A DNA stretch of 64,000 nt. It comes from Candidatus Bathyarchaeia archaeon (GTDB taxonomy: Archaea > Thermoproteota > Bathyarchaeia > Bathyarchaeales > Bathycorpusculaceae). Of this stretch, positions 53,562 to 60,953 are shown one piece after another; the first letter of the stretch is position 1, and each line of letters begins with the position of its first letter. A program made the translations under genes and the position numbers. The notes beneath the pieces are model-generated. The model saw only the letters and a list, made by a program, of their open reading frames with translations. It was not told the origin of the DNA and ran no database searches. The stretch covers positions 64,001 to 128,000 of the forward strand of contig JAVZLQ010000001.1 of the NCBI GenBank assembly GCA_038883655.1, read 5' to 3'.

Positions 53562-53936
53562 TTCAACCCTAATTTTTGTTCCACTCTTAACCTTGCTGAA
53601 AATCTCAAGGTTCCTAGTAACTTTTCCAAGGATGTTAACTGGGCTGTAGGGTTGAGATTCTCCATAAAAGATGCATATAGCGCTGCCCATAGGCCAAAAG
53701 GCTATCGTACCCTTTTCAACAGTGTCCTTTGCCTTTTCCTCTCCCATCTTCACTGGAGTTTCGAAGTATACTTCCTCTTTCCAGAGGGCTGCCCTTCCTT
53801 CTATTGGAAGTTTCCTAACTATCATGTCCACTGTTCTCGGCGACAGAAAGCGCACTAACTCGCCTTCCGCCTCACCCAGCCCTTCAATTACAAACTTTAT
53901 CTTTACTCTCGAAATTGTTTTTTCCTCGGCGCTCAT
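53550..53936 (-). CDS. Cyclophilin-like fold protein (DUF369/TM1367 type)
   Basis: SPRTV..I..KLP, W.EEVYFETPV, GTIAFWP.GSAICIFYG and SPVN.LG. Confidence 0.85.
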   Translation of the reverse strand: MSAEEKTISRVKIKFVIEGLGEAEGELVRFLSPRTVDMIVRKLPIEGRAALWKEEVYFETPVKMGEEKAKDTVEKGTIAFWPMGSAICIFYGESQPYSPVNILGKVTRNLEIFSKVKSGTKIRVELVN

Positions 53937-55261
53937 TACTTTCTCACCCTTTGAAGGAAATTATCTAGCACTTGCTCAAGCGAGATTGGTCCGAGAACCT
54001 GAAGTTCGTACTTCACCCTAACAGTTGGCTTACTTATAGTTGTTACTCTTCTAAGGTCTATCGGTGTCCCGATGACCACGACGTCGCATGGCGTGCGCTC
54101 AATTGTTTCTTTTAACTCAGCTATTTGTTTTTCGCCATAACCAAGGGCTGGAAGGATTCCTCCCAAATGCGTGTATTTTTTATACGACTCCTTTATCGAA
54201 CCAACGGCATATGGCTTTGGGTTGACGATTTCACTTGCGCCAAGCCTCTGCGTTATTATTGTTGCTGCTCCATATGGCATGTCGCCATGCGTTAATGTAG
54301 GGCCATCCTCGATTACTAGGGCTCTTTTGCCCTTAACCAGTTCTGGATTGTCAACGGTTATCGGCGAGGCAGCATCTAAAACTATGGCGTTTGGATTAAC
54401 CATTTTAATGTTTTCTTTCACCCGCTTCACATTTTGTGGATCGGCGGTATCCACCTTATTTACAATAACAACATTTGCCATTCGAAGATTTGCCTCGCCT
54501 GGATGGTAGGTAATTTCGTGTCCAGGGCGATGCGGGTCAACCACAACTATGTGTAAGTTTGGTTTGTAGAATGGTATGTCGTTGTTGCCTCCATCCCAAA
54601 CTATAACGTCTGCTTCCTTCTCTGCTTCACGCAAAATCTTTTCGTAGTCAACTCCCGCATAAACTATTATGCCATTGTCAATATGCGGCTCGTATTCCTC
54701 TCTTTCCTCAATCGTGCAATTATGCTTGTCCAAATCTTCATATGAAGCAAAACGTTGACAAACTTGTTTTCTGAGGTCGCCGTATGGCATTGGATGGCGA
54801 ACCACAACAACCCTTAAGCCCTTGTTTTTCAAGATTTTCGCAACCTGCCTTGAAGTTTGGCTTTTTCCCGAACCAGTCCTAACAGCGCCAACAGATACAA
54901 CTGGAACTTTCGCCTCTAACATTGTGTTTTTTGGTCCCATTAGGCGGAAATCTGCTCCGCAGGACAAGGCTATTGACGCTTTGTGCATGACATATTCATG
55001 CGATACATCGCTGTATGCAAAGATAACCTCTTCAACATTATGTTCCTTTATCAAGGCTGGCAGTTTCTCTTCCGGATAAATTGGTATTCCCTTAGGATAG
55101 TTTGGACCCGCAAGTTCTGAAGGGTACACTCTGCCTTCTATTCCTGGAATCTGAGTGGCGGTGAAGGCAACAACCTCATAGGCGTCGTTGTTTCTGAAGT
55201 AGACGTTAAAGTTGTGAAAATCTCTTCCCGCTGCGCCCATTATAATAACTTTCCTTTTCAT
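53936..55261 (-). CDS. P-loop ATPase of the cDPGS-like family; candidate arginine synthetase (ArcE)
   Basis: IMGAAGRDFHNFN, FTATQIP, AVRTGSGKSQ, RHPMPYG, TIEEREEYE, WDGGNND and EDGPTLTHG. Confidence 0.75.
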   Translation of the reverse strand: MKRKVIIMGAAGRDFHNFNVYFRNNDAYEVVAFTATQIPGIEGRVYPSELAGPNYPKGIPIYPEEKLPALIKEHNVEEVIFAYSDVSHEYVMHKASIALSCGADFRLMGPKNTMLEAKVPVVSVGAVRTGSGKSQTSRQVAKILKNKGLRVVVVRHPMPYGDLRKQVCQRFASYEDLDKHNCTIEEREEYEPHIDNGIIVYAGVDYEKILREAEKEADVIVWDGGNNDIPFYKPNLHIVVVDPHRPGHEITYHPGEANLRMANVVIVNKVDTADPQNVKRVKENIKMVNPNAIVLDAASPITVDNPELVKGKRALVIEDGPTLTHGDMPYGAATIITQRLGASEIVNPKPYAVGSIKESYKKYTHLGGILPALGYGEKQIAELKETIERTPCDVVVIGTPIDLRRVTTISKPTVRVKYELQVLGPISLEQVLDNFLQRVRK

Positions 55262-55334
55262 AAATGGTTCCCTTCTAAAACCGTGAGGTTTAATACTACG
55301 GGTTTCATTCCATATAAACCTTAACGTGTCAGCG

Positions 55335-56438
55335 TTACTCTAGTAGACGTAAAACTGTTTCCCCTATGAAGTCTGCCTGTTCCGCTGTTACTCCTGGATG
55401 AACCGGCAAAGAGAAGACTTGTTCAGCTGCCTTTTCTGTTTGTGGGAGCCTTCGCTTTCCGAATTTTTTGTAGAATGGCATTCGATGGATTGGATTTGAA
55501 TAGTAAACCTCTGCTCCTATGCCATTACGCTTTAGCTCCACGACGATTTTATCTCTTTCTGCTCTTTTTGCGTTTTTCAACCTAACGGTGAACAAGTACC
55601 AGCTATGTCTGTATCCTTTTGGTTCCTTTGGCAATTGCAGCTTCTCCGCCTTTTCCAGTTTTTTTGCAAGTTTCTCTGCGTTCCTTCTTCTTTTTTCCAG
55701 AAATTCAGGCAACCGCTTGAGCTGAACATAGCCTATTGCCGCTTCAATTTCTGGCATGCGGTAGTTGTAGCCCAGCATAACGGACATGTATTTTTCCACT
55801 TCGCCGTGGCTTCTCATTGAACGGATTTTATCCGCCAACATATCATCATTAGTTGTTATCATTCCCCCCTCACCAGTTGTCATGTTCTTGCTTGCGTAAA
55901 AGCTCCAACAAGCAATGTCAGCGAATGTTCCAGGAGGTTTTCCCATGTACAATGCGCCGTGTGCTTGGGCGGAGTCTTCAATGACTTTTAGTCCATGTTT
56001 GTCAGCAATTTCTTTTATCGTTTTCATATCTGCTGGCAAACCGTAAAGGTCAACTGGCACTATCGCCCTAGTCTTTTTTGTTATCGCCTCCTCTATTTCT
56101 TCTGCAGAGATGTTGTATGTTTCTGGGTTTATGTCAACGAACACTGGTTTGGCTCCAAGTGCAGCTATCACTTCAGCTGTAGCTACGAAGGTGAAGCTTG
56201 GCACTATAACCTCGTCACCTGGTTTTACACCTGCAGCGGCAACTGCTAGGTGTAGGGCGGCTGTTCCAGAGTTTACCGCTATTGCGTGTTTTGCTTTTAC
56301 ATGCTCTGCATAGGCTTTTTCAAATTTTGAAACCATGGGACCAGCGCCAAGTCCATGCGTTAGAATCCCGCTTTCAAGAACCCTAATAACGGCTTTTATT
56401 TCCTCTGTTCCTATTTGTGGAGCGTTAATTGGAATCAT
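55335..56438 (-). CDS. DegT/DnrJ/EryC1/StrS sugar aminotransferase
   Basis: NSGTAALH, TFVAT, EDSAQAHG, SFYASKNMTTGEGG, GYNYRM and SLPVHP. Confidence 0.92.
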   Translation of the reverse strand: MIPINAPQIGTEEIKAVIRVLESGILTHGLGAGPMVSKFEKAYAEHVKAKHAIAVNSGTAALHLAVAAAGVKPGDEVIVPSFTFVATAEVIAALGAKPVFVDINPETYNISAEEIEEAITKKTRAIVPVDLYGLPADMKTIKEIADKHGLKVIEDSAQAHGALYMGKPPGTFADIACWSFYASKNMTTGEGGMITTNDDMLADKIRSMRSHGEVEKYMSVMLGYNYRMPEIEAAIGYVQLKRLPEFLEKRRRNAEKLAKKLEKAEKLQLPKEPKGYRHSWYLFTVRLKNAKRAERDKIVVELKRNGIGAEVYYSNPIHRMPFYKKFGKRRLPQTEKAAEQVFSLPVHPGVTAEQADFIGETVLRLLE

Positions 56439-56518
56439 GGAATCGCCTAGCCCAAAATTCTAGTACACCCTTCTATGTTAAATAATTTCGTTTTTGGCTT
56501 GCTGATAAAAATGGAAAA

Positions 56519-57160
56519 TCAGGGTTTTAAGAAGTTGTTGTTTATGGTTTTTACTCTGTTTAGGAAATCACCCATTTCCTTTTCCACTTCTTCCTTCCGC
56601 TTTGTTAGGAAATCTAGTTCCTCAATGATTTCTTGAAGCCATTCTTTTATGGCGCGTTTACACTCCTCCTCCGTCATATTCTCAAGATATTCTGAAACGT
56701 CTTTTGGTTTGCCTTTCTTCAGCAAATTTAACGGGTAATTTATTTGCTGAAACTTTGAGAATGGAAAGAAATGTCTTGTTGAACGTGGCTTCATTAGGCG
56801 CCCGCTTATTCCAGCCGATATGACATCTTCAATTGGTATTTCCGCGTCTTGATCATAAATGTACCGATGAATTCTTCTTTTCCCTACGCGTATCCCAAGG
56901 TTTTTGCTTGCGTCCACGAGTATTGTTGGTATAAGCGTGTATCCTATGTTTTTGAGGGCGAGCCAGCGGTGCATTCCATCCAGTATCACGCGCGTCTTTT
57001 CGTCTGCTATTATTGGATATTTTAGCACTCCGTCTCTGGTTATCTCTTGCTTAAGGATTTCAAGGTATAGCGGCGAACCCTTCTCATGGGGTTTTAACTC
57101 ATCTACGGGCAGCACAACCACTTTTAAATTTGCTTTTTTCTCCAGTGTTGTCGACGTCAA
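56519..57160 (-). CDS. ParB/Srx-fold protein resembling SerK/SbnI free-serine kinases
   Basis: LKPHE, PII.D...ILDGMHRW.AL and C-terminal G.LMKPRSTRHFFP, with a coiled-coil-like tail. Starts 11 nt after trpB2 with a GGTGA SD. Confidence 0.65.
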   Translation of the reverse strand: MTSTTLEKKANLKVVVLPVDELKPHEKGSPLYLEILKQEITRDGVLKYPIIADEKTRVILDGMHRWLALKNIGYTLIPTILVDASKNLGIRVGKRRIHRYIYDQDAEIPIEDVISAGISGRLMKPRSTRHFFPFSKFQQINYPLNLLKKGKPKDVSEYLENMTEEECKRAIKEWLQEIIEELDFLTKRKEEVEKEMGDFLNRVKTINNNFLKP

Positions 57161-57171
57161 TCATTTCACCG

Positions 57172-58527
57172 TCAGCGCTTGAAAACTGGAACTTCGATTT
57201 TTTCAGGTTCATAATCGACAAGTTTGCCCGATAGGAACTGCTCATACGCTGACAAATCAAGCAAACCGTGTCCGCTGTAGTTCATTGCGATAACCTTCTT
57301 CTTGTTTGTTCGCTTGCAGTTCAAGGCTTCGTCTATGACGAATTTTAGACTGTGCGCGGTTTCTGGAGCTATTATTAAGCCTTCTGTTTGCGCCAGAATT
57401 TGGGCTGCTTGGAAAATTTCTGTTTGGCTGTATGCGACTGAGCGCATGTACCCCTCATAGATCAGGTATGATATTAGCGGCGCCATTCCATGATACCTTA
57501 AGCCGCCAGCGTGAATCGGTGGGCAAGCATACCCATGACCGATTGTTAACATTTTAAGTAGCGGTGTCATCTCACCAGTATCGCCATAGTCATATGTGTA
57601 AACGCCTTTTGTAGTGTGCGGCACGGCTTTCGATTCGCAAGCAATGAATTCGGTTTCCGTTTTGCCCTTAAGTTTATCCATCATAAATGGGAAGCAGAAA
57701 CCAGCGTAGTTTGAGCCTCCTCCTATGCAACCACAAACAACGTCTGGATACTCGCCTATAAGTTCAAACTGCTTTTTTGCTTCTAACCCTATAATCGTTT
57801 GGTGCATTAGTACGTGATTCAGCACCGAACCCAAAGAATACCGCGTGTCCTCGTTTGTTAATGTGTCTTCAATGGCTTCTGTTATGGCTATGCCAAGCGT
57901 TCCCGGATGGTTTGGGTTCTCCTTTAGGAGTTTCCTTCCGAAGCTTGTTTGGTCGCTTGGTGATGAAAACATTTCAGCGCCATAGACTTGCGCTATTATC
58001 CTTCTTCCTGGTTTTTGTTGGTAGCTTGCTCGAACCATGTATATGCGGCATTTTAAGTCGAAAATTGTGCATGAAAAAGCTAATGCTGTGCCCCACTGTC
58101 CAGCGCCAGTTTCTGTTACAAGTCGCTTTATTCCCTGCGCCTTGTTATAGTACGCTTGTGCAAGCGCCGTGTTTGTTTTGTGGCTTCCAGTTGGACTAAA
58201 GTTTTCACATTTAAAGTAGATGTGCGCTGGAGTCTTCAAGTATTGTTCAAGTCTTTTTGCGCGGTACAACGGTGTTGGTCTTGGAAGCCTTAGATACGCG
58301 TCTAAAACTTCATCTGGTATTTTTATGAAGCGCTCCGTGGATACTTCTTGCCTTATCAGTTCCTTTGCGAATATTCTCTCTAGGACTTGTGGGCTTATTG
58401 GCTGCATTGTTGTTGGATCTAATGGTGGCGGTAATGGTTCTGGCAAGTCCGCTTGTATGTTGTACCATTGTTCTGGAATTTCGTCCGGGTTTAAGGGAAT
58501 GAAGCATTCTTTTGCGTTGCCTTTCAT
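57172..58527 (-). CDS. trpB2: TrpB2-type tryptophan synthase beta (stand-alone)
   Basis: IPEQWYNIQADLP, PTGSHKTN, TETGAGQWG, LGSVLNHV, GGGSN, HAGGLRYHG, APETAH and SGHG; 451 aa. No trpA in the window. Confidence 0.93.
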   Translation of the reverse strand: MKGNAKECFIPLNPDEIPEQWYNIQADLPEPLPPPLDPTTMQPISPQVLERIFAKELIRQEVSTERFIKIPDEVLDAYLRLPRPTPLYRAKRLEQYLKTPAHIYFKCENFSPTGSHKTNTALAQAYYNKAQGIKRLVTETGAGQWGTALAFSCTIFDLKCRIYMVRASYQQKPGRRIIAQVYGAEMFSSPSDQTSFGRKLLKENPNHPGTLGIAITEAIEDTLTNEDTRYSLGSVLNHVLMHQTIIGLEAKKQFELIGEYPDVVCGCIGGGSNYAGFCFPFMMDKLKGKTETEFIACESKAVPHTTKGVYTYDYGDTGEMTPLLKMLTIGHGYACPPIHAGGLRYHGMAPLISYLIYEGYMRSVAYSQTEIFQAAQILAQTEGLIIAPETAHSLKFVIDEALNCKRTNKKKVIAMNYSGHGLLDLSAYEQFLSGKLVDYEPEKIEVPVFKR

Positions 58528-58541
58528 TCTTTTCGCTCCTA

Positions 58542-58627
58542 CATGTACTTTTTTGTTCTTTTATGTACGGTAGTATACCTCTAAATGCGCGAACATATTT
58601 ATACTTTATTGCGCAAAAATGTACATG
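58542..58627. promoter_or_regulatory. Divergent promoter region with TRP-box-like hexamers and a 13/14 inverted repeat
   Basis: TGTACT 58544-49, TGTACG 58564-69 and TGTACA 58620-25. CATGTACTTTTTTG (58542-55) pairs with CAAAAATGTACATG (58614-27). TATA-like TTTATA at about 58598-58603. Confidence 0.7.
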
Positions 58628-58641
58628 AAGGAAACTGGAAC

Positions 58642-59145
58642 ATGTGGAGTACAATCAAAAAATACCTTGAAAACCACCCGGAAAGACTAAAAGTTGCGCG
58701 TGTCCTCGTAGAAAACGGACTGAGCGTAAAAAACACGAAAATATTCCTAAACGAAATTGAGATTCCTCCAATCCGTGTGGCACGAGTTGCTGGCGTAGAT
58801 AGGCGAACAGTAAACGAGACGTTGAAGGCTATTAGCGCAAATCGTGAACTTTGCCAAATCTTTGAGGGATTACGGAACGCTGGGCACTCCCTAAAAGAAA
58901 TCGCGAAGCACCTAAACTTTGGGGTCTTGGAAATAACGCCTGTTGACGCTAGAATGCCTGGCATACTTGCCAATTCAGCCTTAATATTGGCTGAAAATGG
59001 CTTAAGCATTCGTCAAGCTATTGTGGATGACCCTGAACTTTCTCCCGAGCCCAAACTTACGTTAATTGTTGAGAAGAAAATTCCAGGTGAGCTTATTCCA
59101 AAGTTTCTAAGGGTTAATGGAGTAGCTAAAGTTTCAGTTTATTAA
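58642..59145 (+). CDS. trpY: TrpY-like regulator (N-terminal HTH + C-terminal ACT domain)
   Basis: MW..IK...HP.R.KVA...GL.V...ARVAGVDRRTV...FGVLEI...DAR.PGILA...SIRQA...DPEL...PKLT.I...IPG...GV.KVS.Y. Divergent from trpB2 across TRP-box-like sites. Confidence 0.8.
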   Translation: MWSTIKKYLENHPERLKVARVLVENGLSVKNTKIFLNEIEIPPIRVARVAGVDRRTVNETLKAISANRELCQIFEGLRNAGHSLKEIAKHLNFGVLEITPVDARMPGILANSALILAENGLSIRQAIVDDPELSPEPKLTLIVEKKIPGELIPKFLRVNGVAKVSVY

Positions 59146-59159
59146 AGGCATAAACAACA

Positions 59160-60953
59160 TTATGGTATGTTCAAATTGTCAAAGTAAATTATTATCCACT
59201 TGTCTCCTCTCTGCTCAATGTGCATGGTAACGCTGTTTCCTCTTTCTGTTGCCATCAACTCGTTCCATTGGTCGGTTCGCAGGTCTTTGGGTGTTGCCTC
59301 AACCCACTGATAAGTTGTGTTGTATAACTGTAGGACTATGTGTGTTGTTCCATCCTCGACATACTCGTACTTATCGCGGACGGTCTCGTGAAGTTCAATG
59401 TATGTTATGGCGCCGAAAAGTTTTATGAAATCTATGCGTGTTTTGCTCACTAGTTGTGTGCTTGTTAATTCCTCAGTCATCATGTTTATTACTACTTTAC
59501 TGGTTTCCCAAGCGTCTACTATTGCAAATCCAGCCAAGTAAATGGTTTCGTCTGGTTCGCTGGTGCCTTCACGCCAATAAATCGGCACGTACCATGCGAG
59601 CCTATAAGTATTTGAAACGTTAACTGGGTATAATAGTGGCATTTCCGCGTAGTAAATTCCCGCGGCTGGTTTTGGCAATTTTCCTTCCACAATGTCTTCC
59701 GCCGTCATGCCAGATATGTAATTGCTTAGCCTATAATCGTAAAAGAATATGCCGTCACGCGTGGCTTTGAAGACGCCTGCTAGCGTTCTCTGGTTTCCGT
59801 AGGGGTTAACGCATACAATCGCTACCATGTCGTTTGTTTCCGGGTCTAAGACGTATCGCGTGTCCTCTGTCATTTGGAAGCGCTCGCGGCTCGGCGGTAT
59901 TATCCACAAGAAGCCTCCAGCCCAATAGTCAAAACCTTCTCCTCTTCTGAAGCATCCCATCTCGTTTATCATTTCCTCAAGCCAATTCTCATCGTAAACC
60001 TGCGTAATCCAGTCGGGGACTATGGACAAATCGTTTCCGTCATATCTCAAGCTGCCTTGTGAATCGTAGATTATGGGTTTTTCATATCTCCTTATGAGGT
60101 CAAAACCAACATTGTAGCGTGTTAAAACGTATAGTGTTTCATTTGTTGTTGAGTTCCATGTTGCGTATGCCACGCCATAGCTTTGCGATGTGTCTGCCAT
60201 GTAAGAGCGGAAATGTATGTTGTGGTCCCACCACAAGTTTTCTCCAACAGCGAATTCTACATGTAGTGTTTCTGGTGGCGCAGCTGGGTCTGTTGCGTCT
60301 ATTATGACGAATCCTTTAACATAGTTTTCCGCCAACACGTTTGTCGAGCCTATGACTGCAACCCAAACAAGTTTTCCTTGTGGAGATTTTGTTATGTGGC
60401 AGTCCAAAACGCGCATGTTGCTGCCAAACTCTGACATATGCCTACGCGCAATTGAAACTGCCAACTCCTTTGTTACTAAACGAACCATGTTATCTGGAAT
60501 TTCCTTGCTGAAGGGAAACTCCGAACTTTTAAATGTTATGAAATTGTTAAAGTAGGCGGCGTTTGCCACCCTTTGAATTTGCCAGAAAACAACAGCCAAA
60601 GAAATCGAAAGTAAATAAATCAAAAATAGGGCTACAACTATTTTTCCTCTAACTTTTGCAGACAATTTCAATGGAACATGGCGATGACGTGGATAAAGGT
60701 GTTCTGTTGCACCTTCTTCTTCCAAATGCTTTAGGGAAAACGCTGATTCAATAAGCGCCGCAAAAGCCCTTGTGAATATGAGTATGTATATGAAGATGCT
60801 TAGGGGTGTACGCGAAAACTGAACTATAAAGAAAATGAATAATCCTAAAAGGAGTGAAACAAATCTGGCGGGAGATTTCCATTTTGGTTTTCTCGGCGGG
60901 ATTGGAATGTACCACACAAAAGCCCATATCAACAGTAGTATGAACAAGTTCAA
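59160..60953 (-). CDS. Hypothetical membrane protein with large extracytoplasmic domain
   Basis: Three to four N-terminal hydrophobic segments followed by about 470 aa of aromatic, beta-rich sequence. Confidence 0.7.
   Translation of the reverse strand: MNLFILLLIWAFVWYIPIPPRKPKWKSPARFVSLLLGLFIFFIVQFSRTPLSIFIYILIFTRAFAALIESAFSLKHLEEEGATEHLYPRHRHVPLKLSAKVRGKIVVALFLIYLLSISLAVVFWQIQRVANAAYFNNFITFKSSEFPFSKEIPDNMVRLVTKELAVSIARRHMSEFGSNMRVLDCHITKSPQGKLVWVAVIGSTNVLAENYVKGFVIIDATDPAAPPETLHVEFAVGENLWWDHNIHFRSYMADTSQSYGVAYATWNSTTNETLYVLTRYNVGFDLIRRYEKPIIYDSQGSLRYDGNDLSIVPDWITQVYDENWLEEMINEMGCFRRGEGFDYWAGGFLWIIPPSRERFQMTEDTRYVLDPETNDMVAIVCVNPYGNQRTLAGVFKATRDGIFFYDYRLSNYISGMTAEDIVEGKLPKPAAGIYYAEMPLLYPVNVSNTYRLAWYVPIYWREGTSEPDETIYLAGFAIVDAWETSKVVINMMTEELTSTQLVSKTRIDFIKLFGAITYIELHETVRDKYEYVEDGTTHIVLQLYNTTYQWVEATPKDLRTDQWNELMATERGNSVTMHIEQRGDKWIIIYFDNLNIP

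Follow-up and report, generated by a model that had tools for sequence, protein, structure and literature searches.

A 64-kb stretch of DNA from a Candidatus Bathyarchaeia archaeon (hereafter the window) carries a small gene cluster in which trpB2, encoding a TrpB-like pyridoxal 5'-phosphate (PLP) enzyme, is followed on the same strand by a short gene whose product resembles the free-serine kinases SerK and SbnI, and is faced by a divergent regulator gene of the trpY family. We refer to the short product as SerKL. The best-supported reading of the sequences, towards which we lean without strong conviction, is that serine would be converted to phosphoserine and phosphoserine, with scavenged indole, to tryptophan under the control of TrpY. 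The window belongs to a genome bin of 1.42 Mb in 19 contigs (completeness 93%, contamination 6.5%), and its close relatives are all labelled as Candidatus Bathyarchaeia or Bathyarchaeota metagenome-assembled genomes (MAGs). A preliminary description of this DNA had named three open reading frames (ORFs) here, and all three were recovered by ORF calling (Table 1).

The two top-scoring NCBIfam models for SerKL were SerK (49.8 bits) and SbnI (32.4 bits). In a single-sequence search with SerKL against all PDB sequences, every match was to a SerK or an SbnI entry (E 1e-7 to 4e-6; SerK 5x0b, E 1.3e-7). A profile built from 18 orthologues found SerK 5x0b at E 1.4e-10 and SbnI at E 3.7e-10, with Noc at E 0.083 and ParB at E 0.6-1.1, an advantage of 8-9 orders of magnitude for SerK/SbnI. 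The preliminary description had proposed such a hidden Markov model comparison, in which clustering with ParB proteins that bind cytidine triphosphate (CTP) would speak against a kinase; SerKL sided with SerK and SbnI, not with ParB. A protein atlas search with SerKL returned only its own Bathyarchaeia clusters. From these sequence profiles, we assign SerKL a predicted ParB/Srx fold.

The ParB/Srx-type N-domain of SerKL carries KPHE (residues 23-26) and DGMHRW (61-66) and is followed by PRSTRH (125-130) and a conserved, acidic, helical C-terminus (about 137-205); the motifs are those listed in the preliminary description as KPHE, DGxHRW and PRSTRH. Both motifs of the SerK N-domain are thus present. 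E26 aligns with E30 of SerK, which we take to be the catalytic base, and PDB entry 5x0j carries Q at this position. The (S/T)TRH segment of SerK was also found in SerKL, and it is invariant in a group of SerK-like proteins of about 280 aa as well as in the SerKL orthologues. Alignment of SerKL with the 280-aa group by hhalign (Prob 100, E 2e-39) showed a clean deletion of the middle. Residues 11-87 of SerKL correspond to SerK 15-95, and residues 110-146 to SerK 205-240, the second block having a low score (8.7 bits). About 70 C-terminal residues of SerKL are additional to SerK and form conserved helices, whose acidic part (171-205) had a mean column conservation of 0.80, compared with 0.82 in the catalytic core (71 orthologues). 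In the same 71 full-length orthologues, 47 positions were at least 98% identical and included all motif residues (H25, E26, D61, G62, H64, R65, T128, R129 and H130 among them).

We surveyed 301 Bathyarchaeia genomes for the gene order. Any SerK-like match was present in 176 genomes, the 213-aa type in only 15 (window genome included). Every one of the 12 loci with upstream flank had trpB2 as the immediate same-strand neighbour upstream, two further loci being cut by contig ends, and trpY was divergent upstream in 11 of the 12 extended loci, the twelfth being cut. A second scan with one genome per GTDB species yielded 77 loci (75 archaeal-type and two bacterial). In all 72 usable ones trpB2 immediately preceded the SerK-like gene, and trpY was divergent in 67 of 67. 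The two sets overlap and a few contigs come from the same MAG, and the counts are therefore of loci, not of independent events. The trio of trpY, trpB2 and a ParB-fold gene, for which a synteny survey had been suggested in the preliminary description, was strictly conserved in both scans, and comparative genomics could hardly make the trpB2-serKL linkage stronger.

In the window, the trpB2 stop codon TGA (57174-57172) is separated by 11 nt from the TTG start of serKL at 57160, and the Shine-Dalgarno-like sequence previously assigned to serKL was seen in this spacer. Across the 72 loci the distance from trpB2 stop to serKL start was mostly -14 to +35 nt (45-217 nt in six loci), often with a Shine-Dalgarno-like GGTGA or GGAG ahead of serKL. 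ATG, GTG or TTG occupied the homologous first codon in 39 of the 72, the others starting a codon or two off. All SerKL orthologues are intact ORFs of 201-223 aa. A 384-nt contig (56999-57382) covers the trpB2/serKL junction; its source run is labelled metatranscriptomic but probably represents DNA, and it is no proof of one transcript. The genes downstream of serKL vary: a DegT gene and a 441-aa gene come next in most loci (the DegT gene in 54 of 75), some of them outside family f1, that of the window, but both are missing in some loci with ample flank, and other genes are inserted in several. The T-runs directly after the serKL stop codon are a probable archaeal termination signal that would close a two-gene transcript. 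Because the downstream genes vary and these T-runs follow the stop codon, we limit the conserved unit to trpY and the divergent pair trpB2-serKL.

By sequence, the 451-aa product of trpB2 is an unambiguous TrpB2 family member (TIGR01415, 675.6 bits, cut-off 518.85; PRK12391, 691.5 bits, cut-off 366). Its best PDB chains, named tryptophan synthase beta chain 1/2, were 6hul_B (E 1.6e-150) and 4qys_B (E 6.3e-139), which we take to be structures of Sulfolobus solfataricus TrpB2. Reportedly, TrpB2 enzymes prefer phosphoserine, as Busch and colleagues are said to have found in 2014. They are cited as phosphoserine-dependent in PMC11917138. By analogy, we infer that the window enzyme would share this preference. 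TrpB2 was found in 216 of the 301 genomes, and many Bathyarchaeia carry two TrpB2 types; a second stand-alone TrpB2 of the window genome (contig C1:158812-160113, on the window's contig but outside the window; 433 aa, 53% identical) has neither trpY nor a SerK-like gene as neighbour.

The gene facing trpB2 encodes a protein that barely reaches the cut-off of the subfamily model TrpY_fam (NF053754; 180.2 bits, cut-off 180, residues 21-183). We set the trpY start at 58642 and the spacer at 58528-58641, since the NCBIfam match begins only at residue 21 and the orthologue alignment at Met20; Met20 is probably the true start, which corrects the preliminary description. That description had proposed a helix-turn-helix (HTH)-ACT regulator. 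Its assignment to the TrpY family just holds, and its ACT half was not detected, Pfam giving weak HTH matches only and PDB no relative.

Two ATGTAC boxes (58543 and 58563), the palindrome ATGTACAT (58619-58626) and a TATA-like TTTATAC (58598-58604) lie in the spacer, which agrees with the TGTAC-containing sites noted earlier between the divergent genes. Four of the 19 ATGTAC matches in the window (both strands, 64 kb) fall within these 114 nt, where about 0.03 would be expected. The spacers of 68 aligned loci measured 101-120 nt, save one truncated at 51 nt. Upstream of trpY, the block GAACATATTTATACTTTATTGCACAAAAA[T/A/C]GTACAT was nearly invariant in most of them; it combines a TATA-like element with a TGTACA-type box at about transcription-start distance. 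On the trpB2 side the spacers carry two to three xGTAC/xGCAC boxes about 11 nt apart. The consensus of TRP boxes is TGTACA. The grouping of boxes in the spacer resembles what PMC6737238 describes for Methanothermobacter, whose TrpY binds TRP boxes where the trpY and trpE promoters overlap, and by analogy we infer that the TrpY homologue would exert tryptophan-responsive control over the spacer.

We then considered the genomic background of tryptophan and serine metabolism. In the whole 1.42-Mb genome (93% complete), the best Trp_syntA match scored 21.9 bits (cut-off 27), the best IGPS match 18.5 bits (cut-off 27), and Chorismate_bind had no match. trpA and trpE, which the preliminary description had reported missing from the window, and trpC were thus not found genome-wide, the trpD, trpF and trpG genes having been outside the search. 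TrpA occurred in 132 of the 301 genomes: 131 of the 286 without the 213-aa type and one of the 15 with it, where the match was weak (137 bits). Within the window's family, the TrpA-bearing genera are without the 213-aa type. The indole salvage proposed in the preliminary description agrees with this lack of a de novo tryptophan pathway in carrier genomes, TrpA, IGPS and a chorismate-binding enzyme being without match above threshold in the window genome and 14 of the 15 carriers being without TrpA. Tryptophanase as an internal source of indole was dropped as a candidate, the best Beta_elim_lyase match being the neighbouring DegT-type aminotransferase (51.6 bits). In the carrier genome G145 (contig C3:69601-71609), a TrpB2 of another type (57% identical) lies directly beside the weak TrpA-like match (137 bits), and the two may be a TrpB2-TrpA pair. 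Other genomes with weak TrpA-like matches (113-143 bits) were few and included four from genus g24.

SerB-like matches (E <=1e-10) were found in none of five carriers tested versus four of five trpY-trpB2 genomes without the kinase gene, a comparison of small samples of related genomes. A SerB-like gene was not found in the window genome either (best match 28 bits). The pattern of SerB and TrpA fits a kinase that would supply phosphoserine where the phosphorylated serine pathway, or at the least its final step, is not evident. SepRS was tried as a candidate in the window genome and dropped (best match 91.3 bits, cut-off 380.65).

SerK-like genes with other partners bear on the proposed role of SerKL. 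Three genomes, from two genera, have a SerK-like gene of 154 aa (mini-serK) between trpY and the 57%-identical type of trpB2, divergent from the former and followed by the latter. In a maximum-likelihood tree of 43 sequences, the clade of these 154-aa TrpB2-linked minis (support 100/99) is nested among other minis, and the 213-aa clade (98/95) lies across a 98/95 split from the minis, grouped with bacterial proteins of roughly 200 aa. Because the 154-aa and 213-aa clades lie on either side of a well-supported split, the tree indicates that the link between SerK-like proteins and TrpB2 arose at least twice. A distant TrpY-like gene (38% identical) followed by a same-strand mini SerK-like gene was also seen in another family (L155:7-737, G085), on a short contig with no TrpB2.

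The window genome itself encodes a 587-aa paralog outside the window (L002:139-1902, contig C3), in which two tandem SerK-like domains, the second degenerate, are joined to a CysK/CysM-like PLP domain (TIGR01136, 176.9 bits). At least six related genomes encode similar SerK-like/CysK fusions (546-597 aa), and the 587-aa protein looks like a one-polypeptide route from serine via phosphoserine to cysteine. With a mini SerK-like query we gathered 30 loci and scored partners within 1.5 kb: six were CysK fusions, two lay beside a separate CysK-like gene (325-336 bits), one followed SepCysS, four were linked to TrpB2 and 17 had no such partner within this distance. The SepCysS locus (L019:250-1905), from another Bathyarchaeia genome, has a 146-aa mini gene directly downstream of SepCysS (590.8 bits, cut-off 301) on the same strand, which suggests a phosphoserine supply for tRNA-dependent cysteine synthesis. 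TrpB2, CysK-type sulfhydrylases and the SepRS/SepCysS route have O-phosphoserine in common. The same kinase fold being joined to CysK-like, SepCysS and TrpB2 users of phosphoserine, these data point to the SerK-like fold as a general local phosphoserine generator in Bathyarchaeia.

Taken together, the preferred reading would proceed as follows. A TrpY-type repressor would bind the TGTAC boxes in the 114-nt spacer and, responding to tryptophan, control its own gene and the bicistronic trpB2-serKL. SerKL would phosphorylate free L-serine to O-phospho-L-serine, with ATP or ADP as putative donor. TrpB2, if it shares the preference of the characterised TrpB2 enzymes, would join this phosphoserine with indole to give tryptophan. 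Because the genome is without trpA, trpC and trpE, the indole must come from outside. Overall, serine and scavenged indole would yield tryptophan, with one phosphoryl transfer spent.

Several observations weigh against this reading. The SerKL score with the equivalog model SerK (NF053625) compares with a cut-off of 380 bits and covers residues 12-84 only, and that with SbnI (NF033589) compares with a cut-off of 350 bits and covers residues 14-86. The middle part of SerK, roughly 110 residues (SerK 96-204), is absent and SerKL residues 88-109 stand in its place; the preliminary description had overlooked that the kinase-like ORF is missing the middle third of SerK. Because these cut-offs were missed and a third of the length is gone, we file SerKL outside both curated families, and consider it on balance probable that it represents a new, shortened form of free-serine kinase that feeds TrpB2. 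Whether the truncated fold is an active serine kinase is the main uncertainty. According to PMC12704722, one archaeal SerK-like protein bound CTP, not ATP.

The relatives and the distribution of serKL add further points on this side. The nearest full-length relatives outside the clade are the bacterial ~200-aa proteins, which are fused or adjacent to cytidylyltransferases in glycan clusters. Two of these loci (L127:3631-6969 and L126:2143-3841; 38% identical), from Mariniphaga sp. and an uncultured bacterium, share the order SerK-like gene, cytidylyltransferase-like gene (the two fused in L126), methyltransferase, Asp/Glu-racemase-like gene and TagF-like transferase, with glycosyltransferases also present in the clusters, and may encode a route to a phospho-amino acid activated with cytidine diphosphate (CDP). 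Because the nearest relatives sit with cytidylyltransferases, the substrate of this sub-branch may not be serine. The carrier genomes are close relatives, and their counts are accordingly not independent. In five genomes (G108, G031, G232, G063 and G128) trpY faces trpB2 but no kinase gene comes after it; the TrpB2 of G108 is 80.6% identical to that of the window, and G232 keeps the window's downstream genes. Since the trpY-trpB2 pair exists without it in other Bathyarchaeia, the kinase gene is an accessory gained or kept by a subset and not obligatory. The genome also encodes a dehydrogenase resembling SerA, though under the cut-off (322 bits versus 454), and a class-V aminotransferase resembling AGXT, and these two could be an alternative supply of phosphoserine; the bypass of SerA and SerC claimed in the preliminary description is therefore not established. 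Finally, the TrpY homologue of Thermococcus kodakarensis is described in PMC6737238 as not regulating trp genes, and for this reason the regulatory step stays conditional.

The bacterial context raises the possibility that SerKL is a small-molecule kinase for another acceptor, for example another hydroxy-amino acid, whose product would enter a non-standard TrpB2 reaction or another pathway. The 213-aa clade is on the same side of the 98/95 split as the bacterial roughly 200-aa proteins, and their cytidylyltransferase/racemase/TagF context suggests a conversion of phospho-X to CDP-X. However, the characterised relatives SerK and SbnI all act on L-serine, the Bathyarchaeia partners TrpB2, CysK-like proteins and SepCysS share phosphoserine as substrate or precursor, and the racemase neighbour also fits an amino-acid acceptor, and we consider another acceptor unlikely. 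Near-invariant residues in the SerK catalytic motifs would be unexpected in a mere scaffold, and the enzymes paired with the related minis have nothing but the substrate phosphoserine in common. Both points speak against SerKL as a non-catalytic, nucleotide-binding partner that would replace TrpA as an allosteric or scaffold protein and make no phosphoserine; we regard this as decidedly unlikely, although the middle part of SerK is missing, the conserved acidic C-terminal helices (171-205, conservation 0.80) are a possible docking surface and SerKL is found in genomes without TrpA. A physical 'kinase-coupled tryptophan synthase' that keeps the kinase activity, in which these acidic helices would dock SerKL onto TrpB2 in the place of TrpA and hand phosphoserine to the PLP site, is a doubtful but conceivable arrangement; in it, the mini-SerKs would be portable phosphoserine generators for at least three enzymes (TrpB2, CysK-like proteins and SepCysS).

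SerKL might also run in reverse, as a substitute for phosphoserine phosphatase that releases serine, as has been proposed for SerBK (DUF1015). The window genome and all five other carriers tested are without a SerB-like gene, and kinase-fold replacements of SerB were proposed by GapMind 2026 (PMC13759103), but the same source calls the reverse reaction thermodynamically unfavourable, and a tryptophan regulator with a phosphoserine-preferring neighbour is a misfit for a serine-producing role. We judge it very improbable. Barely credible is a ParB-type role for SerKL in DNA binding, partition or DNA cleavage, with an adjacency to trpB2 that is metabolically meaningless. In public records it is annotated as 'ParB N-terminal domain-containing protein', as the preliminary description had predicted it would be mislabelled, and Pfam ParB_N (PF02195) gave a weak match of 18.5 bits, below the gathering score of 26.3. 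Membership of ParB (PF02195, TIGR00180) failed, however: the Pfam scan of SerKL found no HTH, dimerisation or other domain, a search for a ParA neighbour not having been made. The profile preference for SerK/SbnI over Noc/ParB (8-9 orders of magnitude), the linkage to trpB2 in 72 of 72 loci and the general lack of chromosomal ParABS in archaea, as stated in PMC12704722, also argue against a ParB-type function.

The proposed serine-phosphoserine-tryptophan route shares features with several known systems. With SerK (T. kodakarensis TK0378, PDB 5x0b, NF053625), SerKL shares the ParB/Srx-type N-domain, KPHE, DGxHRW and the C-terminal (S/T)TRH. SerKL differs from SerK in length (213 aa versus 242 aa), in having no counterpart to about residues 96-204 and in the ~70 added C-terminal residues. 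SerK is an ADP-dependent kinase of free L-serine, whereas for SerKL both activity and donor are putative. In T. kodakarensis, SerK and CysK make up a cysteine route in which phosphoserine is fed to a fold-type-II PLP enzyme, CysK (PMC5120207); the corresponding partner of SerKL is TrpB2 under a TrpY-type regulator. The SbnI/SbnA pair of Staphylococcus aureus staphyloferrin B synthesis (PDB 5uje, 6nr6) likewise combines a free serine kinase with a neighbouring CysK-family PLP enzyme that uses phosphoserine, and the N-domains of SbnI and SerKL align (profile E 3.7e-10), but SbnI is a bacterial protein of 254 aa that serves siderophore synthesis and is named in NCBIfam as a bifunctional transcriptional regulator/O-phospho-L-serine synthase. 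The window enzyme is a clear member of the family of S. solfataricus TrpB2 (PDB 4qys, 6hul, 6hte; TIGR01415). To our knowledge, no dedicated kinase partner has been described for the characterised TrpB2 enzymes. TrpY of Methanothermobacter thermautotrophicus is likewise encoded divergently from its target, with repeated short boxes in overlapping promoters (PMC6737238), but controls a full trpEGCFBAD operon, whereas the putative target here is only trpB2-serKL. SerBK (DUF1015), described in PMC13759103 as a remote structural relative of SbnI, also has its gene context in serine/phosphoserine metabolism; by that description it belongs to another family, whose link is with serA and serC rather than trpB2.

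No paper in our literature search connected a serine kinase with TrpB2, in line with the preliminary description, to which the coupling had looked undescribed; subscription papers (Busch et al. 2014 and the SerK/SbnI structure papers) were outside this search. The text of the SerK paper (PMC5120207) does not mention tryptophan, and the main text of PMC12704722 does not mention TrpB or PALP fusions. The cellular meaning of the phosphoserine preference of TrpB2, and the source of the phosphoserine, have been open since the 2014 report. A putative dedicated kinase gene beside trpB2 under a tryptophan-type regulator, in genomes without the rest of the pathway, offers a testable two-step route from serine and scavenged indole to tryptophan and, if true, a physiological setting for the phosphoserine dependence of TrpB2. 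It would extend the free-serine-kinase family by a much shorter architecture, now annotated as 'ParB', and suggests that SerK-like kinases act as local phosphoserine sources for several enzymes. In metabolic reconstructions of Bathyarchaeia, some predicted tryptophan auxotrophs could become indole-dependent prototrophs.

Table 1. Features of the trpY/trpB2-serKL locus (positions in the window)
Feature	Position	Strand	Description
T-runs TTTT..TTTTT	56505..56518	-	directly 3' of SerKL stop codon
SerKL, short SerK/SbnI-like ORF	56519..57160	-	213 aa, TTG start
trpB2/SerKL spacer	57161..57171	-	11 nt 'cggtgaaatga'; Shine-Dalgarno-like GGTGA at 57170-57166
trpB2	57172..58527	-	451 aa, TrpB-like PLP enzyme
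Divergent promoter/operator spacer trpB2/trpY	58528..58641	.	114 nt; ATGTAC boxes, TATA-like element, palindrome
trpY-family regulator	58642..59145	+	167 aa from Met20; open frame back to 58585 (186-aa ORF 58585-59145)

The genes next to the cluster are listed here for completeness. Downstream of serKL, the minus strand at 53936-56438 encodes an aminotransferase of the DegT/DnrJ type (446 bits) and a P-loop-like protein of 441 aa, both split from serKL by the T-runs and an 80-nt spacer. On the other side, a 597-aa ORF adjoins trpY (59160-60953, minus strand); it had no Pfam or NCBIfam match and its N-terminus looks membrane-embedded. Relatives of this ORF also adjoin trpY in G265 and G163, at about 72-81% identity, and G280 has a partial match in the same place.

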